A stretch of DNA of 45,093 bases from Nitrospira japonica (lineage in GTDB: Bacteria > Nitrospirota > Thermodesulfovibrionia > Thermodesulfovibrionales > SM23-35): contig DYFC01000029.1 in the NCBI GenBank assembly GCA_020725385.1, positions 1-45,093 of the forward strand. The letters run 5' to 3'. Under the pieces are notes generated by a model, which was given only the letters and a program-made list of their open reading frames with translations, made no database searches and was not told the DNA's origin. The translations under genes were made by a program, and so were the position numbers. Position 1 is the first letter of the stretch. Each line of letters opens with the position of its first letter. Shown in pieces: positions 16,882-26,764 of the stretch.

Positions 16882-19389
16882 TTACTTTCTACTTAATATG
16901 TTATTTATTTTTTCGAGCAAAATATATGGAAGGAAAGGTTTCATTACTAAATCTACGCCTTCAGAAAGAACTCCTTTTTTATGTGCTATATCATAAGTAT
17001 ATCCGCTTGTAAATAGAGCTTTTATATCAGGCCTTTCTTTCTTTATAAATTCGTACACTTCTTTGCCGTTCTTTTTAGGCATTACAACATCAAGAAGTAG
17101 CAAATCTATTTTATCTCCATTTTCAAAAAACTTTTTTATGGCATCCTCTCCATCAATTGCTTCAATAACTGTATAACCTGCTTCTTTCAAAATTTCAACA
17201 GCAGACATTCTAACTTCTTTATTATCTTCAGCGATAAGAATAGTCCCGATTCCTTTAGTCATTTTATATGATTTATCATTCTCACTCAGTTGTATTTCTT
17301 CAGCCTGCAGAGGCAAGTATATTTTAAAAGTTGTGCCTTTTCCTTTTTCACTATAACAGTTTATAAAACCATTATGCTGCTTTATTATTCCATAAGACAT
17401 TGCAAGGCCAAGACCTGTTCCTTTGCCAACTTCTTTTGTTGTAAAGAAAGGTTCAAATATTCTTGCTTTTGTTTTTTCATCCATGCCTTCGCCAGTGTCA
17501 GAAAAAGTAATTAACGCATATTTGCCAGGTTTTCCATATCCATGCATTTTAATAAAATTATTATCAAGATCAACAACATCGGTTTTAATTGATATAACTC
17601 CAAAATCACTTATTGCATCTCTTGCATTAGATGCAAGATTCATCAGAACTTGTTCAAAATTAACAGTATCTATCATAACAGTAAGCTTCTCATCTAATAA
17701 TTCTGTCTTTAATTCTATTTCCTCACCAACAAGCCTAATCAACAGATTTTTTATGTTCTTAATTACCATATTTACATCAACAAGTTGTGGTTCTATAATC
17801 TTTTTTCTACTGAATGCAAGAAGATTCTTTGTAAGTGAAGCTGCTTTCTCTGAAGCAGTAATAATATTATCTATATATCTACGAGATGGATCATTTTGTG
17901 ATGCTTTCATTAAAAATAGATTTGCATAGCTCATGATTGCAGTTAGAATATTATTAAAATCATGGGCAATACCACCAGCAAGTGTGCCAACAGCTTCCAT
18001 CTTCTGGGCTTGAATAAGCTGTGCTTCAAGTTTTTTACTTTCAGTAATATCTTCATATGATACTACTATTCTTTTATCTTCAAGAGTTGGGCCTATAACA
18101 GCAGCGGTTACTCTGCAAACAATATCCCTGCCACTTTTATGTCTGCATATAAATTCTTCTGAATGCGTTCTATTTTTTTGTAATATAGGATAAAATCTAT
18201 TAGCTATTTCTTCAAATTCTTCGTCGCTCCTGTAAAGAATTCTTGTTTTTTCGCCTATTAACTCCTCAGACTTCCATCCAAATACATTCTCGACTGAATT
18301 ATTAGCAAAGATAATTACTCTATTCTTCAATCCTAAAACAGCATGAGGTATTGCACTTAAAATTGAAGATTCAAGTGCTTCAAGTTCTTTAAGGGCTTTT
18401 TCTGTTCTCATACGTTCTGTAACATCCCTGAAACTCCATACTCTTCCAATAATATCATTACCAATACGCTGAGGCATTGAGTATCTTTCAAAAACTCTTC
18501 CATCTTTAAACTCAATTAAATCAAAACTCTCTTTTTCAGGATTAGCATACAATTCCATAACTTTCTTTATAAAAGAATCAGGATTTTTAAGCTGGGGAAG
18601 AACATAAGATAAAGCTTTTTCATCGCTTCCAGTTGATATAATATGTTCAGGAATTCTCCACATATCTATAAATTTCTTGTTAAAACTTTCAATTTTTCCA
18701 TTTATATCAACAACAAGAATTCCATCTGCAGTTGACTCAAGTGCAGCATTAAGTAAAGAGAATGCCTGTTGCTTTTTATTTATTTCCTGTGAAATGCTTT
18801 CAATCATTTCATTAGTAATTTTTGCGAGTATATTAATAAGTTCAATATTTGAAGTTCCTGTTACTCTTGCGCTTAGGTCACCTTTTATAACTTTATGCAG
18901 AACATCAAAATGTTCGGCAAGTGAAATTGCAAATTCGTGAGATTGCTGAACAATCTCTCCAACATTTTGTGCGGTAAGATTTATTAAATGTTTTAAATCC
19001 CTTATAACTTCAAAATTTGATTCTTCGGAAATTCTGACATCAGGGTCACCCGAAGATATTTTTTTAAGAGCTTCGGTTATTTCTAATAATCCCCGGGATA
19101 ATTCTGTATTCTTATTTTCAAGTTCTGCTTCTCTTTTTTTAAGATTATCTCTGAAATTTTTGTATTCTTTACTGATAGCTTCGAAGAATTCTCCGGGTAT
19201 TTTGTTACTTGAATTTTTCTTAAATACACTACATTCAGGGCAGCATTCAAGTTTATCAACAAGATAGGTCTGGTGTGAATTATTACATTTGGTACCCAAA
19301 ATTAACCAGCATTTATAATCTTTGGAATTATAGGCAGGACATTCTGTTCGTTCGCATTTCAAAAGTTCCCAACAACTTATTTTTTTCAT
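16882..19389 (-). CDS. Hybrid sensor histidine kinase (Cys-rich two-CW-like N-terminus, HAMP-like, PAS-PAS, HisKA, REC)
   Basis: 'CWELLKC..CPAY..CWLILGTKC', 'AGGIAHDFNNIL', 'FEPFFTTKEVGKGTGLGL', C-terminal receiver. Confidence 0.9.
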   Translation of the reverse strand: MKKISCWELLKCERTECPAYNSKDYKCWLILGTKCNNSHQTYLVDKLECCPECSVFKKNSSNKIPGEFFEAISKEYKNFRDNLKKREAELENKNTELSRGLLEITEALKKISSGDPDVRISEESNFEVIRDLKHLINLTAQNVGEIVQQSHEFAISLAEHFDVLHKVIKGDLSARVTGTSNIELINILAKITNEMIESISQEINKKQQAFSLLNAALESTADGILVVDINGKIESFNKKFIDMWRIPEHIISTGSDEKALSYVLPQLKNPDSFIKKVMELYANPEKESFDLIEFKDGRVFERYSMPQRIGNDIIGRVWSFRDVTERMRTEKALKELEALESSILSAIPHAVLGLKNRVIIFANNSVENVFGWKSEELIGEKTRILYRSDEEFEEIANRFYPILQKNRTHSEEFICRHKSGRDIVCRVTAAVIGPTLEDKRIVVSYEDITESKKLEAQLIQAQKMEAVGTLAGGIAHDFNNILTAIMSYANLFLMKASQNDPSRRYIDNIITASEKAASLTKNLLAFSRKKIIEPQLVDVNMVIKNIKNLLIRLVGEEIELKTELLDEKLTVMIDTVNFEQVLMNLASNARDAISDFGVISIKTDVVDLDNNFIKMHGYGKPGKYALITFSDTGEGMDEKTKARIFEPFFTTKEVGKGTGLGLAMSYGIIKQHNGFINCYSEKGKGTTFKIYLPLQAEEIQLSENDKSYKMTKGIGTILIAEDNKEVRMSAVEILKEAGYTVIEAIDGEDAIKKFFENGDKIDLLLLDVVMPKKNGKEVYEFIKKERPDIKALFTSGYTYDIAHKKGVLSEGVDLVMKPFLPYILLEKINNILSRK

Positions 19390-19589
19390 TAATATCCTTT
19401 AACCCGAATAGCAATTATTTTCCATTCTAATTTTATCCTAATATTAATAATCTTTGGCTTCCTGTAGATATAATCAATTTTAATAAATAAAACAATATTA
19501 TGCAAAATTTTTAAAATATAATAATCTGGTGTTATGGAACTATCGACTTTGGATTTTTATTTTTGAAAGCAATGTCTGTAGTATTCGGA

Positions 19590-20384
19590 CTAAATCAATT
19601 TTCTGGCCTGTATATAAGCTGAAAATACCATATGTTCAACACCTTGCCCGAAATTCCAGCTTTTAATTATTTCATCACTCTTTTCTTTACCCCTTATTAC
19701 AATATCAGTAAAGCCAGCTTTATTGAGCAATTTTTTTAGTTCCTCAACCGGAACTGCACCTGTAATTCAGCCACTATAAGCAGCTTCATTCTGTTTTATT
19801 GATTCAGAAAATTCTCCTTTTTTAAGAATGTCTGAAATTGCGATTCTTCCTCCCGGTTTAAGTACCCTGAAGGCTTCATTGAATACAGCCTGTTTATCCA
19901 GGGAGAGATTAATTACACAATTTGAGATAATAACATCAACTGAATTATCTTCCACAGGTAGTTTCTCGATTTCTCCAAGTCTGAAATCAACATTAGTATA
20001 ACCGAGTTTTATTGCATTTTCTTTAGCCCTTTGAACCATTTCGGGTGTCATATCAACACCGATAACATATCCATTTTTACCAACTTTCATCGCTGAAAGA
20101 AAGGCATCAAATCCTGCACCACTACCAAGATCAAGAACAATTTCTCCTTCTTTAAGTTCTGCAATACCAAGTGGATTACCGCATCCAAGCCCAAGATTAG
20201 CTTCACCGAGACCGATTCTTAATTCTTCATCTGAATATCCAAGCATTTTCCCAGCTTCTTTAAGATTAATTGCATTATTATCGGGAGAACAACAGCCTGC
20301 AGATGTTGCACAACATGTGCCCTGCGAAGCAATTTCCGAGTAAGTCTTAATTACAAGTCGTTTTAGTTTAGCTTTATTATCCAT
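19590..20384 (-). CDS. arsM: Arsenite S-adenosylmethionine methyltransferase, predicted selenoprotein (264 aa, UGA=Sec at codon 206)
   Basis: 'GLGCGNP', 'LDLGSGAG', 'SNCVINL'; in-frame TGA at 19767-19769 in 'YSG*ITGA'; frame stays open for 58 aa of ArsM-like tail ('AGFTDI..SAYIQARK') to TAG at 19590. Confidence 0.85.
19738..19755 (-). promoter_or_regulatory. Candidate bacterial SECIS element
   Basis: AGUUCC-GGUUGA-GGAACU hairpin starting 11 nt after the UGA; loop begins with GG. Confidence 0.7.
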
Positions 20385-20457
20385 TGTTTAACCTTCCAAC
20401 CCCTTTAATTGTATTGCAATTCTCTGTATTCTTCTTAACATAGGGTTATCTTATCTC

Positions 20458-20548
20458 TGTCATTCCGCACTTGATGCGGAATCCAGTTTTTTATAGTTTC
20501 CTGCTTTCGTAAGGACAGCGTATAGATTCCTGCATCCACAGGAATGAT
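20458..20548. repeat. Composite palindromic repeat (REP/RPE-like) upstream of arsM
   Basis: TGTCATTCCGCActtgaTGCGGAATCCA ... TAGATTCCTGcatccaCAGGAATGA; the two ends are mutually inverted. Confidence 0.65.
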
Positions 20549-20643
20549 AACAGACAACTTAAGGTTTGATATTCGTTTCATTTCTTCTCTTTTTTGCTGC
20601 ATTATATTCATACGCTATTATAATATTTTCTTAAACACTTGTT

Positions 20644-21042
20644 TCAATATTTGTCCCTTTCAACAACAGGTTTAATGTCGAGCACCGGTGTGCCGTCAAT
20701 CATATCTATACCTCTAACAGAAATTATATTGCCTTGTATCCCTGTTACTTCAACAATAGAAAAACCTATAGCATTCGGTCTTACCGGAGAGCATGTGCTG
20801 AAAACACCCGTTTCTTTCTCTTTATGGGGAGGTTTTTGAATTAGATAACTTGAATTAAATTTCGGACTTTTATGAAAGTGAAATATCACAATTATCTGCT
20901 GACCCTTCTTTATATCTCTAAGCCCTTCCGTGTATTTTCCATCGATAATAATCTCTCCCTCTGCATCCGAGATACTCCAATGTCGTGGAATGTTCTTTTC
21001 TTTAGTTCTGATAAATCCTATTGTTTCAAATTCGATTTTCAT
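20644..21042 (-). CDS. TsaA/TrmO-like SAM-binding beta-barrel protein (short form)
   Basis: 'IGFIRT', 'GVFSTCSPVRPNAIG', 'GIDMIDGTPVLDIKP'. Confidence 0.85.
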   Translation of the reverse strand: MKIEFETIGFIRTKEKNIPRHWSISDAEGEIIIDGKYTEGLRDIKKGQQIIVIFHFHKSPKFNSSYLIQKPPHKEKETGVFSTCSPVRPNAIGFSIVEVTGIQGNIISVRGIDMIDGTPVLDIKPVVERDKY

Positions 21043-21947
21043 GTTTGACGCTGATGGCTATCATCCTCTTCCATATGAATCTGGCAGTAAAGTCCATTTG
21101 TTTCACACTCGGCACATTCGAATTGAAGTATTGTATGTTTAATGTTCATTTCTAATAAAGTATTTTCAATTGTGTTTCTTACCACTGCAACTTCGCTGAG
21201 TTTTTGATCGTGCACCAATATATGAGCTGAAAATGCAACATTTCTGTGTGAAGGAGACCAGAGATGGACATTGTGAATACCTAATACTCCGGGGGTTTCA
21301 GCAATCTTTTTTACTATGTCCTCAATATCAAAACCTTTCGGTGTCATTTCAAGAAAAATAGTGAGCGCTTCTTTGACAACTCTTATTCCACCAAATAAGA
21401 TAATAAATCCAATTATAATACTCGCTATAGGGTCAGCATATGTCCAGCCTGTAAAATAAATTATTAAACCAGACAATATTACTCCGACCGATGATAATGT
21501 ATCACCAAGCACATGCAACCATGCGCTTTTAATGTTCAGGTCAGCATGATTATGCCCTAAAATAAGTGCAATTAGTATATTGCCTGTTAAACCTATCAAG
21601 GCAATAACTATCATTGTAGAAGTCTGTATTTGAAGCGGAGAGAGAAAACGATTGTATGATTCGTAGAATATAAAAATAGCGATTATTATAAGGCTTATCG
21701 CATTTATAACTGCTGCAAGAAGCCCGATTCTCTGATAGCCAAAGGTAGCCCTCCTATCAGATGGCTTTTTACCTATACGCATGGCTATCATGCTCAGCCC
21801 GAGCGCAAAGACATCAGTTAGCATATGTCCTGCATCGCTTAAGAGTGCAAGACTTCTGCTTATTATTCCGCCGATAACCTCGGCGAATAGAATAACAAGC
21901 GTTAGAATAAAACTTAAAGCAAGACGTTTTTCAAGAGGTATTTTCAT
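21039..21947 (-). CDS. Cation diffusion facilitator (CzcD/ZitB-like)
   Basis: 'SLALLSDAGHMLTD', 'AWLHVLGD', 'ADP'. Confidence 0.92.
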   Translation of the reverse strand: MKIPLEKRLALSFILTLVILFAEVIGGIISRSLALLSDAGHMLTDVFALGLSMIAMRIGKKPSDRRATFGYQRIGLLAAVINAISLIIIAIFIFYESYNRFLSPLQIQTSTMIVIALIGLTGNILIALILGHNHADLNIKSAWLHVLGDTLSSVGVILSGLIIYFTGWTYADPIASIIIGFIILFGGIRVVKEALTIFLEMTPKGFDIEDIVKKIAETPGVLGIHNVHLWSPSHRNVAFSAHILVHDQKLSEVAVVRNTIENTLLEMNIKHTILQFECAECETNGLYCQIHMEEDDSHQRQT

Positions 21948-22218
21948 TTTTTATATTTATTATTTCACGGGAAATTGAATCTATATCATATGTAACATAC
22001 TCAGAAATATATTTCTTTTCTTGGCAGTAACTTATTATTTTGTTCATCAAATAAATAAGTTCGTCTTTGAGTGTTGAAACCTCGCCCATGCCATCACAGC
22101 CCTTTTGCCTTTGTTTTGCAATTAAGTAAAGTTCGGCATATTCCTTCACCCTTTCAAATAACTTTGCGAGTTCTAAATCGCTATTTATTAATTGGTTGAT
22201 AGTTCCAAGAAAATTCAT
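21931..22218 (-). CDS. Hypothetical helical protein (95 aa)
   Basis: Tightly packed between the arsG-like and CDF genes; 'KGCDGMGE'. Confidence 0.6.
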   Translation of the reverse strand: MNFLGTINQLINSDLELAKLFERVKEYAELYLIAKQRQKGCDGMGEVSTLKDELIYLMNKIISYCQEKKYISEYVTYDIDSISREIINIKNENTS

Positions 22219-22220
22219 CT

Positions 22221-22904
22221 TTAGAAAATTACGAATACATAAACAAGGACATAATAAATTCCAACCAATATAAAAACTACCCCGGTTATCTTTTTTGTAT
22301 AAAATTCAATTCTTGTAATATTGTAATAGAACTTATTAACATAATTAGTGCTTAATGCAATAAGAAAAGCGAAAACGAGAACAGGCAATCCTGTTCCAAG
22401 TCCATAAATCATGGGTAATATAATGCCCGATTTCGCTTTTAATGCAAGAGGGATTAACCCTCCAAAGAAAAGTGCTGCTGAAACAGGACAAAACGCAAGA
22501 GCAAATAAAATACCCAGTGGTAATGCTCCAATTAATCCTTTCTCCATAAATTTATTTGTGACATTTGCTGAAACAGAAGGTAATGATAATGTCATTCTGA
22601 TAAGGTCAAGCAGAACCATACCTACAAAAATTAAAATAATCCCGAGAAATTTGTTAACGTATCTCTGGAGAAAATCCGAGATAACAGGAATATCTATGAG
22701 AGCCTTTACAATAAGAATTCCAAGAGTAATATATGTGATACTTCTTCCAATGGCGTAGAAAATGCCGGATAAAAAAACAATCTTTTTTTGTGTAATATTT
22801 TGTGAAACAAAAGATATTGCAGCAATATTGGTAGCCAATGGACACGGACTTACTGATGTTAGTATTCCAAGCCAGATAGATGAAGAGATTAATAAAAATT
22901 CCAT
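22221..22904 (-). CDS. CcdA/DsbD-like membrane protein (ArsG family)
   Basis: About 6 TM helices; 'SPCPLATN' and 'AFCPVS' Cys motifs. Confidence 0.8.
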   Translation of the reverse strand: MEFLLISSSIWLGILTSVSPCPLATNIAAISFVSQNITQKKIVFLSGIFYAIGRSITYITLGILIVKALIDIPVISDFLQRYVNKFLGIILIFVGMVLLDLIRMTLSLPSVSANVTNKFMEKGLIGALPLGILFALAFCPVSAALFFGGLIPLALKAKSGIILPMIYGLGTGLPVLVFAFLIALSTNYVNKFYYNITRIEFYTKKITGVVFILVGIYYVLVYVFVIF

Positions 22905-22907
22905 TAT

Positions 22908-23474
22908 TTAAGTTTCCTTTAAGAAATTCTCTACTTCATCCTTAACATATTTAAAAAATTTATTTTTATCCCTGTAATATTTCCAGACATCGGGCAACAC
23001 CTTCCATTTAACTTCTTTATCTTTATTGACAAGAGACAATACAAGCGACCTGGTAAATAATTGATAATCCTGTATAAAGTGCCGGCTTTCAGGGTCCTCA
23101 ACATTTATTGATTTAAATTCAAGTTTCCCTTTTTTTAATTCCTCTGAAAAGAAATATTCAATAGCTTCTTTTGAATATTTTTCAATTGTTCTACAGGTTA
23201 TACACCTATATGTTCCATGAAAATAGTAAGCAATTACATGTAATTTTTCTGATTTAGAAATGTTAGCAGATGAAGAAGGGACTTCTTTCTTTTCAGGTTC
23301 TGTTTTGCTGGATGTTTGAACTTTCTCTAAAGTATTTGAAACTCTATTATTAACTTCTGCAATAGCAGTTGTATTTTCGATTGTCTTAGGAGTAAATTCT
23401 TTATAAATAAGAACAGCAAAACTTAATGCTATAAAAATAAAGAGAAATATTTTGATTATTTTTTTTAAGCTCAC
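22908..23474 (-). CDS. Membrane-anchored thioredoxin-fold protein (ArsF family)
   Basis: N-terminal TM; 'YYFHGTYRCITCRTIE'. Confidence 0.75.
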   Translation of the reverse strand: MSLKKIIKIFLFIFIALSFAVLIYKEFTPKTIENTTAIAEVNNRVSNTLEKVQTSSKTEPEKKEVPSSSANISKSEKLHVIAYYFHGTYRCITCRTIEKYSKEAIEYFFSEELKKGKLEFKSINVEDPESRHFIQDYQLFTRSLVLSLVNKDKEVKWKVLPDVWKYYRDKNKFFKYVKDEVENFLKET

Positions 23475-23531
23475 TTAAAATCTCCTTTTGAAATAAATAG
23501 TTTTAAACTCACCATCACTATTACTTTATGG

Positions 23532-24704
23532 CTAATCTGCTATATAACCAAAAATTAATCCTGAAATTGTTGCCATAATTATTACAAGACTTACAAAAAC
23601 AACTGTTTTTCTTGTTCCCATTGCTCGTCTAATGACAAGCATATTTGGCAGACTCAGAGCAGGTCCTGCAAGAAGTAAAGCCAGAGCGGGTCCTTTACCC
23701 ATTCCTGAACCAATTAATCCTTGAAGAATTGGAACTTCTGTTAAAGTTGCAAAATACATGAATGCGCCTACAAATGAAGAGAAAAAATTAGCAAAAAAGG
23801 AATTCCCGCCAACTAAAGTGCTGATATATTTTGAAGGTATAATACCTTCATATCCTACTCTTCCAAGAAGAAATCCTGCTGCGATTACGCCTCCCAGAAG
23901 AAGTGGCAATATCTGCAAAGCCAATATCCATGACTGCTGTGTCCACTCCCTTAGTTCATCTTTTTTAAACCACTTGATAAGCATTATTGCCAAAGAAATT
24001 GAGAAAAATCCAGTAATCCACCATTTGTAGTGATAGATGAGCCACCAGAGATTATGGCTTTCCTCCGGAGGTCTACCCCAGTTTGCAAAGACAAGAATTG
24101 CAACCATAGAAAAAAAATAAGGAATAGTTTTCTTAAGAGAACGTTCGCCCTGCATATTGCTAAAATCAAATTCCTCTCCAGCATGACGCTCTCTTTCTTC
24201 TTTGATAAAAATAAAATGCATAAGTAAACCAATAACAACACTGAATAAGACCGCTCCAACAGCTCTTGCCAATCCCAATTCCCATCCAAGTATTCTTGCC
24301 GTAAGAATTATTGCAAGCACATTAATGGCAGGGCCTGAATATAAGAATGTAATTGCTGGCCCCAGACCGGCGCCTCTTTGATATATGCCCATAAATAAAG
24401 GAAGGATTGTACATGAGCAGACCGCAAGAATTGAACCCGAAACAGAGGCTACAGTATAAGATAGAAACTTATTTGCCTTTGCACCAAAGTATTTCATAAC
24501 CGAGGCCTGGCTGACAAATACAACAATCGCACCTGCAATAAAAAAAGCAGGCACAAGGCAAAGCAAAACATGCTCTCTTGCATACCACTTTGTCAATGCA
24601 AGCGCTTCATTTACTGCATTGGTAAATCGTGCATTCTCAATAGGAAGAAAATAGCAAACAATAAATACTCCAAGTACAATTAAAAACTTATACCGCTCTT
24701 TCAT
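23532..24704 (-). CDS. arsP: DUF318/ArsP family permease
   Basis: 'LAVCSCTILP', 'FLYSGPAIN', 'MYFATLTEVP', 'AGPALSLP'. Confidence 0.8.
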   Translation of the reverse strand: MKERYKFLIVLGVFIVCYFLPIENARFTNAVNEALALTKWYAREHVLLCLVPAFFIAGAIVVFVSQASVMKYFGAKANKFLSYTVASVSGSILAVCSCTILPLFMGIYQRGAGLGPAITFLYSGPAINVLAIILTARILGWELGLARAVGAVLFSVVIGLLMHFIFIKEERERHAGEEFDFSNMQGERSLKKTIPYFFSMVAILVFANWGRPPEESHNLWWLIYHYKWWITGFFSISLAIMLIKWFKKDELREWTQQSWILALQILPLLLGGVIAAGFLLGRVGYEGIIPSKYISTLVGGNSFFANFFSSFVGAFMYFATLTEVPILQGLIGSGMGKGPALALLLAGPALSLPNMLVIRRAMGTRKTVVFVSLVIIMATISGLIFGYIAD

Positions 24705-25039
24705 TCTTTTCCAATCTTTAATTTGTATTTTTCTAAAAAATAATCAGCCCAGTCAGACTCGTTTCTTTGTATTGCAGCATTGTAAAGAATTTCTGCAGAA
24801 TCCTGTTTGAATTTAGTAACCATTTCTTCTCCCAGATTATACTTTTTAGTTATTTCAGCAACCTTCTCAATATAATTCTCGAGAATTTTATCAAGGTTCT
24901 CAAATGAACAAACATAATTGTTCTCACTGTCATGCATACAACAAAACATTCTTGAAAAAGGCTTTATTTTTATTTGTCGCCTAAGTTCATCAATTTCTTT
25001 TAGTGCGTCCTCTTTTGTTTTTAATAGATTTTCTTTCAT
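24701..25039 (-). CDS. Hypothetical protein with vicinal Cys pair (112 aa)
   Basis: ATGA-coupled to both acr3 and arsP; 'MFCCMHD..YVC'. Confidence 0.65.
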
Positions 25040-26112
25040 AGTGGATTTGCTCCTTTAATTTTGCAGAATTCCGGAGAGTAATATTTTCTCTGGAAATACA
25101 ATGCTACATTCACAAGACCTATTAATACAGGTACTTCAACAAGCGGACCAATAACAGTTGCAAAAGCTGCTCCTGAATTTATACCGAAAACAGCTACAGC
25201 AACAGCAATAGCAAGTTCAAAATCATTGGAAGCTGCTGTAAAACTCAATGTGGCTGATTTCGGATAATCGGCACCGATCTTTTTTGCGATATAAAATGTT
25301 ATTAAAAACATGAAAACAAAATATATGAACATTGGAATAGCAACTCTTAAGACATCAAAAGGAAGTTTGATAATATATTCCCCTTTGAGTGAAAACATTA
25401 CAATTATGGTAAAAAGAAGCGCCACAAGTGTTACAGGACTTATCTTAGGAATAAATTTTTCATGGTACCATTTTTTCCCTTTTGATTTTACAAGCGTAAA
25501 ACGGGTGATTACACCGCCAATAAAAGGTATTCCGAGATAGATAAAAACGCTTTTTGCTATTTCGCCAATTGTAACATCAACAACCGCTCCATGTAATCCA
25601 AGTAAAGGCGGTAGTTTTGTTACAAATATCCATGCATAAACAGAATACGTTAAAACCTGAAATAAAGCATTAAAAGCAACAAGTCCTGCAACATAATCAG
25701 GGTCACCGCAGGCAAGATCATTCCAGACAAGCACCATTGCAATACAACGCGCAAGTCCAACAAGAATTACACCTACCATATAGTCAGGATAATTGTGCAA
25801 AAATATTATTGCCAAAAGAAACATTACAATTGGGCCAACTATCCAGTTTTGAATAAGGCTTACAGAGAGTATCTTATAATTGCTAAATACTCTGGGAAGT
25901 TCTTCGTACCTTACCTTTGCCAGTGGTGGATACATCATTAGGATTAATCCAATTGCAATAGGTATGTTTGTAGTACCAACCTGAAAAATATTCCAGAACT
26001 CTGTAATCTTTGGATAAAAATAACCCGAACCAACACCAATAGCCATTGCAAGAAATATCCATAAAGTAAGAAATCTATCCAGAAAAGATAATCTTTTAAC
26101 CACATCAGCCAT
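25036..26112 (-). CDS. acr3: Acr3 arsenite efflux transporter
   Basis: '[12 protein letters not shown]', 'GLARCIAMV', 'FELAIAVA', 'GPLVEVP'. Confidence 0.95.
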
Positions 26113-26144
26113 TTGAACCTCCGTTACTAAGAATATCCGGTTAT

Positions 26145-26522
26145 CTAACTTTCACAACATAACGCTTCAAGCGTTCGGCATTTGATGCCGGATTTTTGAT
26201 TTTTTACCTTTAAAAATTCTTTTAGTCTAATAATGTCTTCTTTTACAGATTCTTCAGAAATTCTCTCTAATGCTGAAAGTAAAAGAAATCTTCTGAAGAA
26301 ATCAGAATCATCGATCTTGTAATGAACCCATTTGCCCTGTTTTCTATCCTTAATAAGCCCTGCTTCTTTAAGAATAGATAGATGAAAGGAAACCTTTGGT
26401 TGAATCATATTTAAGGCTGTAACTAAATCACAAACGCATAACTCACCATTCTCAAGTAATTTAAGAATTTTCAGACGGGTTACATCCGATAAGGCTTTAA
26501 ATATATTAAGTATCTCATCCAC
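26145..26522 (-). CDS. arsR: ArsR/SmtB family repressor
   Basis: 'FKALSD..RLKIL', 'ELCVCDL', 'VSFHL'; C-terminal 'C..CC'. Confidence 0.92.
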
Positions 26523-26524
26523 AA

Positions 26525-26764
26525 TTAAACCTCTTCTTTGATTAAAGATTTTACTTTTTCAAGAGAAGGTAAAGGTTTTCCGGAATGTTTCAGTTTCCCG
26601 TTAACCATTAATCCCGGAGTTGATTTTGTGTGTTTCATAATTTCAAAAATATCCGTGACTTTTGTGATTGTTGCATCAATACCGAGTTCTGAAACAGCTT
26701 TTTTTGCAAGTTCTTCCATAGCATGACAATTCGGACAACCAGGACCTAATACTTTAATTTCCAT
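26525..26764 (-). CDS. Small redox-active disulfide (thioredoxin-like) protein
   Basis: 'IKVLGPGCPNC', 'TPGLMVNG'; GGAGG RBS. Confidence 0.9.
   Translation of the reverse strand: MEIKVLGPGCPNCHAMEELAKKAVSELGIDATITKVTDIFEIMKHTKSTPGLMVNGKLKHSGKPLPSLEKVKSLIKEEV

Follow-up and report, generated by a model that had tools for sequence, protein, structure and literature searches.

An arsM gene with an in-frame UGA at an arsenic-ligand codon in Nitrospira japonica: a predicted selenoprotein

The arsM gene, its in-frame UGA and the read-through protein

We analysed a stretch of 45,093 nucleotides (nt) from Nitrospira japonica (contig DYFC01000029.1 of assembly GCA_020725385.1, positions 1 to 45,093; the whole stretch is called the window below), which carries on its minus strand an arsenite methyltransferase gene (arsM) with an in-frame TGA. 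The coordinates of the gene, of its key codons, of a hairpin that follows the TGA and of the neighbouring genes are listed in Table 1. Under translation table 11, the open reading frame (ORF) 20384..19767 encodes 205 amino acids (aa) and ends with '...QNEAAYSG' directly before the TGA at 19769..19767. Past the TGA, the same frame continues as 'ITGAVPVEELKKLLNKAGFTDIVI...SAYIQARKLI' for 58 sense codons to a TAG at 19592..19590, giving a total of 264 aa. Translation thus agrees with an original prediction, made from the letters of the window, that the ORF ends at the TGA between AAYSG and ITGA and that 58 further codons to the TAG complete a protein of 264 aa.

The same prediction named TGC or TGT as the codon that raw reads might show instead, in which case the TGA would be an error of sequencing or assembly. 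Nothing was found in support of such an error. Three coded runs, each from a different study (X1, X3 and X4; one is possibly the window's own source), have contigs that span positions 19767-19769, and no alternative letter is listed in any of them; in run X3 (depth 99), the three differences from the window are all at other places. For positions 19400-20600, the public runs listed include none of RNA. The TGA is therefore not an assembly slip. It is also found in relatives that were assembled independently, and we give an erroneous codon next to no credence.

The read-through protein matches the NCBIfam arsenite methyltransferase profile NF008823 with 332.2 bits (cut-off 263) over residues 3-262 and profile positions 3-267 of 272, and the cut-off is passed solely when the TGA is read through. 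It also matches the Pfam domains Methyltransf_31 (E = 1.5e-41), Methyltransf_11 and Methyltransf_25. All three matches include a glycine-rich motif, DLGSGAG, which we take to be the S-adenosylmethionine (SAM)-binding motif of class I methyltransferases; its residues D85, G87, G89 and G91 are invariant in an alignment of 26 sequences (A2).

The best matches among the sequences of solved structures are CrArsM, CmArsM and human AS3MT. In phmmer alignments, residue 206, encoded by the TGA and predicted to be selenocysteine (Sec, U), is matched to Cys224 of CmArsM (4fr0) and to its counterpart in CrArsM. Each As(III) ligand of CmArsM has a partner in the window protein: Cys72 in C68, Cys174 in C156 and Cys224 in U206, the last being a predicted Sec instead of Cys. 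Residue 206 does not vary among the sequences of A2, where U is shown as C. Two further claims of the original prediction thereby hold: the UGA falls on a conserved As(III)-binding Cys (CmArsM Cys224, human AS3MT Cys206), and the partner Cys of the 'SNCV' motif is present as C156.

According to PMC3877260, the As-binding residues of CmArsM are Cys72, Cys174 and Cys224 (Cys61, Cys156 and Cys206 in the human enzyme), both methylation steps are lost in the C174A and C224A mutants, and the first step alone is lost in C72A. By this alignment, Sec206 would stand in the place of CmArsM Cys224 and human AS3MT Cys206, and together with Cys156 it would bind As(III) and methylarsenite (MAs(III)) through both steps. 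Cys68, the counterpart of CmArsM Cys72, would be the third ligand and serve the first methylation step. In this arrangement, two sulfur atoms and one selenium atom would bind the metalloid, and the Se-As ligation may have consequences for catalysis.

An AlphaFold model of the read-through protein, based on 26 aligned sequences, has a mean predicted local distance difference test (pLDDT) score of 85.6 and a predicted template modelling (pTM) score of 0.86; a Cys-rich N-terminal stretch (residues 23-38) is modelled with low confidence. When this model was compared with the PDB by Foldseek, ranks 1-12 were all ArsM or AS3MT structures. Profile score, fold and the three ligand positions place the read-through product in the ArsM family, and it is predicted to methylate As(III).

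The 58 residues after the UGA are modelled as a helix (213-223) and two core strands (225-232 and 253-262). If the UGA were read as a stop, the 205-aa product would lack one helix, the last two β-strands and one As ligand, and it is predicted to be inactive because part of the fold and a ligand would be missing. Conceivably, translation does stop at the UGA, the 205-aa product is functional and the downstream part is a separate small gene; a 46-aa ORF starting from TTG is in fact found there (19730..19590). However, the Cys-type homologues are continuous through this region, the truncated form would be without one As ligand and two core strands, and conservation extends to the frame and to the motif AYSG-U-ITG at the junction. 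We regard a separate small gene as highly improbable.

Conservation of the TGA and of the downstream frame

The read-through protein was searched for in 60 relatives and in the window's genome, and the 30 loci obtained were re-examined by tblastn and translation. The window and all 20 full-length orthologous loci (66.7-85.6% identity) have a TGA at the aligned codon, and the surrounding motif is AYSG-U-ITG(A/S). Among the 30 loci, TGA is found at the same site also in two fragments at contig ends and in two distant paralogues, and Cys is found there in four homologues (AYIG-C-L(A/S)GA in three and GE-C-LAGA in one); one locus ends before the codon-206 site. Mean identity to the window protein, calculated for 19 orthologues, is 73.3% after the TGA versus 73.7% before it. 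The tail is as conserved as the body and is therefore translated and constrained.

The distribution was also followed in 301 genomes drawn evenly from the phylum, 102 of which have a match at E 1e-45 or better. All of the full-length matches at 61% identity or above (15 of 15, window included) contain exactly one TGA; matches at 59% or below contain none, except for one at 48%. Judged by these sequences, the Sec-type proteins form a clade of essentially one order nested among Cys-type homologues, which is the classic Sec/Cys pattern.

These observations bear on the view that the locus is a nonsense pseudogene, in which TGC or TGT has recently become TGA and the downstream part is a decaying remnant. 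The table-11 ORF of 205 aa does end at the TGA, and selD, a gene of the Sec pathway, was not found in the draft genome (see below), both of which are compatible with a pseudogene. On the other side, every one of the 20 full-length orthologous loci, which span a family and an order, has the same TGA. The tail, besides matching the body in conservation, stays open to the same end, and the model places it in the fold with high confidence. The tails of the relatives show neither frameshifts nor a neutral substitution pattern. A pseudogene is, in our assessment, a practically negligible alternative. The original prediction had proposed that the UGA recurs in relatives, and had named a decaying tail and homologues without TGA as what would speak against it: the UGA recurs in every full-length orthologous locus, Cys-type homologues exist, and the decay did not materialise.

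Some loci differ from the general picture. An arsM orthologue from the same genus (L035, G002:C8) has, in addition to the TGA, a disrupted frame and a TAA close to the 5' end, where it is either broken or mis-assembled. The two distant ArsM-like paralogues, both in relatives (L048, G053:C34, and L050, G040:C33; 38-40% identity by tblastn), have TGA at the Cys224-equivalent position, in the motifs WSQ-U-IGGA and WAT-U-IGGA, respectively. Both have Gly at the Cys174-equivalent position (ISNGV), because of which they may not bind As in the manner of ArsM.

Selenocysteine decoding: the hairpin, the machinery and a second SelB

The hairpin that the original prediction had placed after the UGA (an AGUUCC/GGAACU stem with a GGUUGA loop, 11 nt downstream, the loop starting 17 nt away) was recovered in every detail on the minus strand. 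Over the 40 nt from the UGA, it is the minimum-free-energy (MFE) structure (-8.1 kcal/mol, z = -2.16), a stability matched by 4 of 200 dinucleotide shuffles. In an ungapped alignment of 25 Sec-type sequences (A1), the hairpin keeps its position and the six stem pairs are formed in 88% of the 150 cells; shifting the 3' arm by 1-3 columns lowers this to 9-65%. At the second stem pair, 20 sequences have G-C, three A-U and one G-U, and one is unpaired. One orthologue with VSVETL and one distant paralogue have a shifted stem, GGUCU(C)/(G)AGACC, in the same place. The loop reads CGUGGA in most relatives, and a G is found at its first or second position. By the bSECISearch criteria for bacterial Sec insertion sequence (SECIS) elements, a G stands near the start of the apical loop, which lies about 16-37 nt from the UGA; the geometry of the hairpin agrees with both.

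Several points weigh against a SECIS element. The covariation score of the hairpin is reached by 17 of 500 shuffles, and double changes in more than one sequence are seen at one stem pair alone. The stem is only 5-6 bp long and lies inside conserved codons (VPVEEL). Folded alone, the hairpins of relatives do no better than shuffles (L041: z = -0.62, L038: z = +0.59), the MFE fold of the two distant paralogues is a different structure, and weak A/U-rich hairpins (z from -0.4 to -1.1) can arise close by in Cys-type homologues too. The hairpin is thus a probable SECIS element with moderate support, and not a proof. As the hairpins of relatives are not better than shuffles, the assignment of Sec rests on the conservation of the codon and the tail and not on the fold. 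A search of positions 19300-20750 against Rfam returned two sub-threshold chance matches (SNORD65 with 29.9 bits, gathering threshold 41, and the S15 leader with 16.3 bits), and no family covering the hairpin or the 259-nt spacer upstream of arsM.

If the hairpin acts as in the bacterial Sec pathway, it would recruit SelB with Sec-tRNA-Sec(UCA) 11 nt past the UGA, and Sec would be inserted in competition with release factor 2 (RF2). We looked for the components in the draft genome (2.46 Mb, 71 contigs, 96.6% complete, 34.7% G+C). Profile searches identified selA (628 bits) and two selB genes (384 and 358 bits), and a tRNA-Sec with the anticodon UCA scores 72 bits. One in-frame TGA each is also found in fdhA (1512 bits), in a second fdh-like gene, in nuoB and in a UXX-star glutaredoxin-like gene. 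The RF2 gene prfB is present (505 bits) and four genes neighbouring arsM end in TGA; TGA is therefore otherwise a stop in this genome. Genome-wide reassignment of TGA (genetic codes 4 or 25) was considered and rejected on three grounds: RF2, the neighbours ending in TGA, and Cys as the aligned residue.

The original prediction had tied its case to selA, selB, selC and selD. The first two and tRNA-Sec (selC) are present, and selD was not found in the draft, where the best matches to TIGR00476 are thiL, hypE and purM; tblastn with a SelD from the same genus finds just thiL (25% identity). Nor was selD matched in G005 (98% complete, of the same genus) and G024, two relatives whose arsM is of the Sec type. 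SelD, the selenophosphate synthetase, is needed for the synthesis of Sec-tRNA, and these three results count against the insertion of Sec. An assembly gap is the likelier cause of the missing gene, because selD was found in 37 of 40 relatives, each copy with its own single TGA wherever the match is full-length.

Gene structure, homology, conservation of the TGA and tail, and most of the Sec machinery are directly observed, and from them we infer that Sec is inserted at codon 206. The UGA is very probably read in this way, which would make the gene a genuine Sec-type arsM.

The absence of selD from the draft also leaves room for a reading in which the UGA is recoded, at least partly, to Cys or another residue, either because selenophosphate synthesis is missing or through a second SelB and a Sec-like tRNA-Cys. 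Elements of the latter kind exist on contig C15, where a Sec-shaped tRNA (23008-23099, minus strand) lies directly upstream of the second selB copy (21101-22957, minus strand); as loci, the two are L014:1497-1592 and L001:1492-3435, respectively. The tRNA scores 57.7 bits with the Rfam tRNA-Sec model and is classified by ARAGORN as tRNA-Cys with the anticodon GCA; it has U as its discriminator and an encoded CCA. This selB is 58% identical to the selB beside selA on contig C52. No cysS-like gene follows the C15 tRNA.

A selC*/selB* arrangement has been proposed for recoding with Cys, and selB* has been reported in two deltaproteobacterial orders (Mukai et al. 2017, PMC5389517). The C15 pair of tRNA-Cys(GCA) and selB matches the arrangement described there, a point in favour of recoding with Cys. 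Four considerations go against it: a Sec-like tRNA-Cys with the anticodon GCA reads UGC and UGU, not UGA; the genome has an intact selA and a canonical tRNA-Sec(UCA); 37 of 40 relatives have a selD with its own TGA, a sign that the Sec system works in this lineage; and Sec best accounts for the fact that the whole clade keeps UGA and not an ordinary Cys codon. We grant recoding of the UGA to Cys or another residue a slim chance.

The C15 tRNA has BLAST matches at E 1e-6 or better in 32 of the 60 relatives, some of which could be canonical tRNA-Sec. Among 11 loci fetched from relatives, ARAGORN confirmed tRNA-Cys(GCA) in eight. In five of the 11, a selB-type gene stands directly beside the tRNA match, and a sixth (L064) contains the C-terminal end of selB alone. 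In two genomes (G012 and G015), the Sec-like tRNA-Cys is found within about 1 kb of selD.

A related proposal is that ArsM is a facultative Sec/Cys enzyme: when Sec-tRNA is scarce, the second SelB and tRNA-Cys(GCA) would deliver Cys at the SECIS-marked UGA, for example by wobble. Under selenium shortage, the SECIS-bearing arsM mRNA would then be completed with Cys and As methylation would not be lost. Because the anticodon of this tRNA is GCA, such delivery is unlikely, and we put its chances slightly lower still. Insertion of Sec by the canonical route remains the preferred reading of codon 206.

Genomic neighbourhood and comparison with known arsenite methyltransferases

The gene arsM is the last of a run of genes on the same strand, with an arsenic and metal cluster (26764..22221) upstream (Table 1). 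There is a small ORF between the ArsG-family transporter and the CDF gene. The ArsF and ArsG genes and the ArsE-like thioredoxin make up an ArsEFG-like module beside arsR-acr3. A same-strand cluster of arsR, acr3, a permease and arsF/G-like genes fits an arsenic-detoxification role for arsM.

Table 1. Features of the arsM locus and its neighbourhood in the window (CDS: coding sequence; CDF: cation diffusion facilitator).
Feature	Coordinates	Strand	Remarks
arsM CDS	20384..19593; stop TAG 19592..19590	minus	264 codons, with the TGA read as (predicted) Sec
In-frame UGA, codon 206, predicted Sec	19769..19767	minus	motif AYSG-U-ITGA ('UxxG')
Cys156 codon (ISNCV)	19919..19917	minus	corresponds to As(III)-binding Cys174 of CmArsM (phmmer to 4fr0/4kw7); column at least 90% conserved in A2
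Cys68 codon (LGCGNP, 'GCGNP' Cys)	20183..20181	minus	corresponds to Cys72 of CmArsM (phmmer); column at least 90% conserved in A2
Glycine-rich motif DLGSGAG, residues 85-91	20132..20112	minus	inside Methyltransf_31/11/25 matches
SECIS-like hairpin	19755..19738	minus	stem AGUUCC (19755..19750), loop GGUUGA (19749..19744), GGAACU (19743..19738); stem starts 11 nt after UGA
ArsE-like thioredoxin-fold gene	26764..26525	minus	NCBIfam MTH895/ArsE 82.2 bits, over cut-off
arsR	26522..26145	minus	ArsR/SmtB 101 bits, over cut-off
acr3	26112..25036	minus	455.6 bits, over cut-off
Small ORF	25039..24701	minus	
SaoE/SO_0444-like permease with CSC motif	24704..23532	minus	SaoE 114 bits, SO_0444 108 bits, both below cut-offs
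ArsF-family gene	23474..22908	minus	115.4 bits, over cut-off
ArsG-family transporter	22904..22221	minus	271.5 bits, over cut-off
CDF cation efflux transporter	21947..21039	minus	TIGR01297 267 bits, over cut-off; ends at TGA
TrmO/TsaA-like gene	21042..20644	minus	TIGR00104 108 bits, over cut-off; ends at TGA

The 259-nt spacer that separates arsM from the TrmO-like gene contains two short palindromes (within 20455-20550), GTCATTCCGCACTTGATGCGGAATC and ATTCCTGCATCCACAGGAATGA. The motif at the palindrome ends, GTCATTCC, has 48 copies in the genome, and GGAATGAC has 61; other contigs contain four more ATTCCTG...CAGGAAT palindromes. The pattern suggests a small dispersed element resembling the repetitive extragenic palindromic (REP) type. 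Directly downstream of arsM lies a gene for a hybrid of a PAS histidine kinase and a response regulator (835 aa, 16882-19389, minus strand). The N-terminus of this kinase is Cys-rich (CWELLKCERTECP...CWLILGTKC...CCPEC) and might be a metal- or redox-sensing module.

Selenoproteins of the ArsM family have been catalogued before. Table 1 of each of two reviews, PMC13188914 (2026; NF008823, UxxG, one Sec) and PMC9312934 (2022; PRK11873), counts an 'Arsenite methyltransferase' selenoprotein family among those 'experimentally verified' and cites Fomenko et al. (2007, Science 315:387) for it. PMC2398784 includes 'arsenite S-adenosylmethyltransferase (PRK11873, arsM)' in the selenoproteome table of the Global Ocean Sampling (GOS) data of 2008. 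As summarised in a later AS3MT paper that cites it, Fomenko et al. identified Cys157 and Cys207 of mouse AS3MT as sites of As binding and activity; the enzyme tested in 2007 may therefore be the Cys-type mammalian AS3MT. The surmise in the original prediction that Sec-type ArsM proteins might already appear in surveys was correct, as the reviews and the 2008 table show. Its description of the gene as 'hidden' is true of the ORF call and does not extend to the literature, where such proteins are listed.

Studies of the enzymology of Sec-type ArsM (kinetics or structure) were not found in the full-text literature, a coverage that leaves out most subscription journals; PMC1976440 and PMC5552862 contain nothing on Sec-type ArsM. 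Because no kinetic or structural study was found, a direct Se-As ligand is a chemistry worth an enzymological test. The window would add one more lineage with Sec as an As(III) ligand, in which arsenic methylation would be tied to selenium supply. There is also a consequence for annotation: gene callers that use table 11 give a 205-aa fragment or a pseudogene here, and do the same with the orthologues of the searched relatives. Where anaerobic and geothermal metagenomes are surveyed for arsM from called proteins, this clade would be missed or assigned a wrong size.

Compared with the Cys-type enzymes of known structure, CmArsM (4fr0, 4fsd, 6cx6), CrArsM (5evj) and human AS3MT (8xt7), the model gives Foldseek E-values of 3e-19 to 2e-17, query-normalised TM-scores (template modelling scores) of 0.58-0.65 and 31-35% identity; the SAM motif and all three positions of the As(III) ligands can be aligned. 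The window protein differs in its predicted Sec at the ligand equivalent to Cys224 of CmArsM and Cys206 of AS3MT. With 264 aa it is also shorter than the solved chains of the eukaryotic enzymes (321-387 residues), whose C-terminal domain it lacks.

The NCBIfam ArsM-fusion selenoproteins, NF041537 (ArsM/AhpD), NF041536 (ArsM/DUF2284) and NF047649 (methyltransferase/UXPK-star), have the methyltransferase core with UxxG in common with the window protein, going by the motifs in PMC13188914. Their profiles match it at E about 1e-48 over residues 47-230. It was rejected as a member of these families: the scores are 164-168 bits against cut-offs of 460-575, and the window protein has a single TGA and no second domain or second Sec.

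The Sec-type proteins of NF008823/PRK11873 are the closest known relatives. The window protein belongs to the same NCBIfam family, its U-I-T-G corresponds to UxxG, it has one predicted Sec, and homologues have Cys at that site. There is no difference in kind; what is added is a further lineage, in which all close relatives in the order carry the Sec form. The window arsM is a mis-called member of a family of selenoproteins that has been in the catalogues since 2007-2008, and does not represent a new kind of system.

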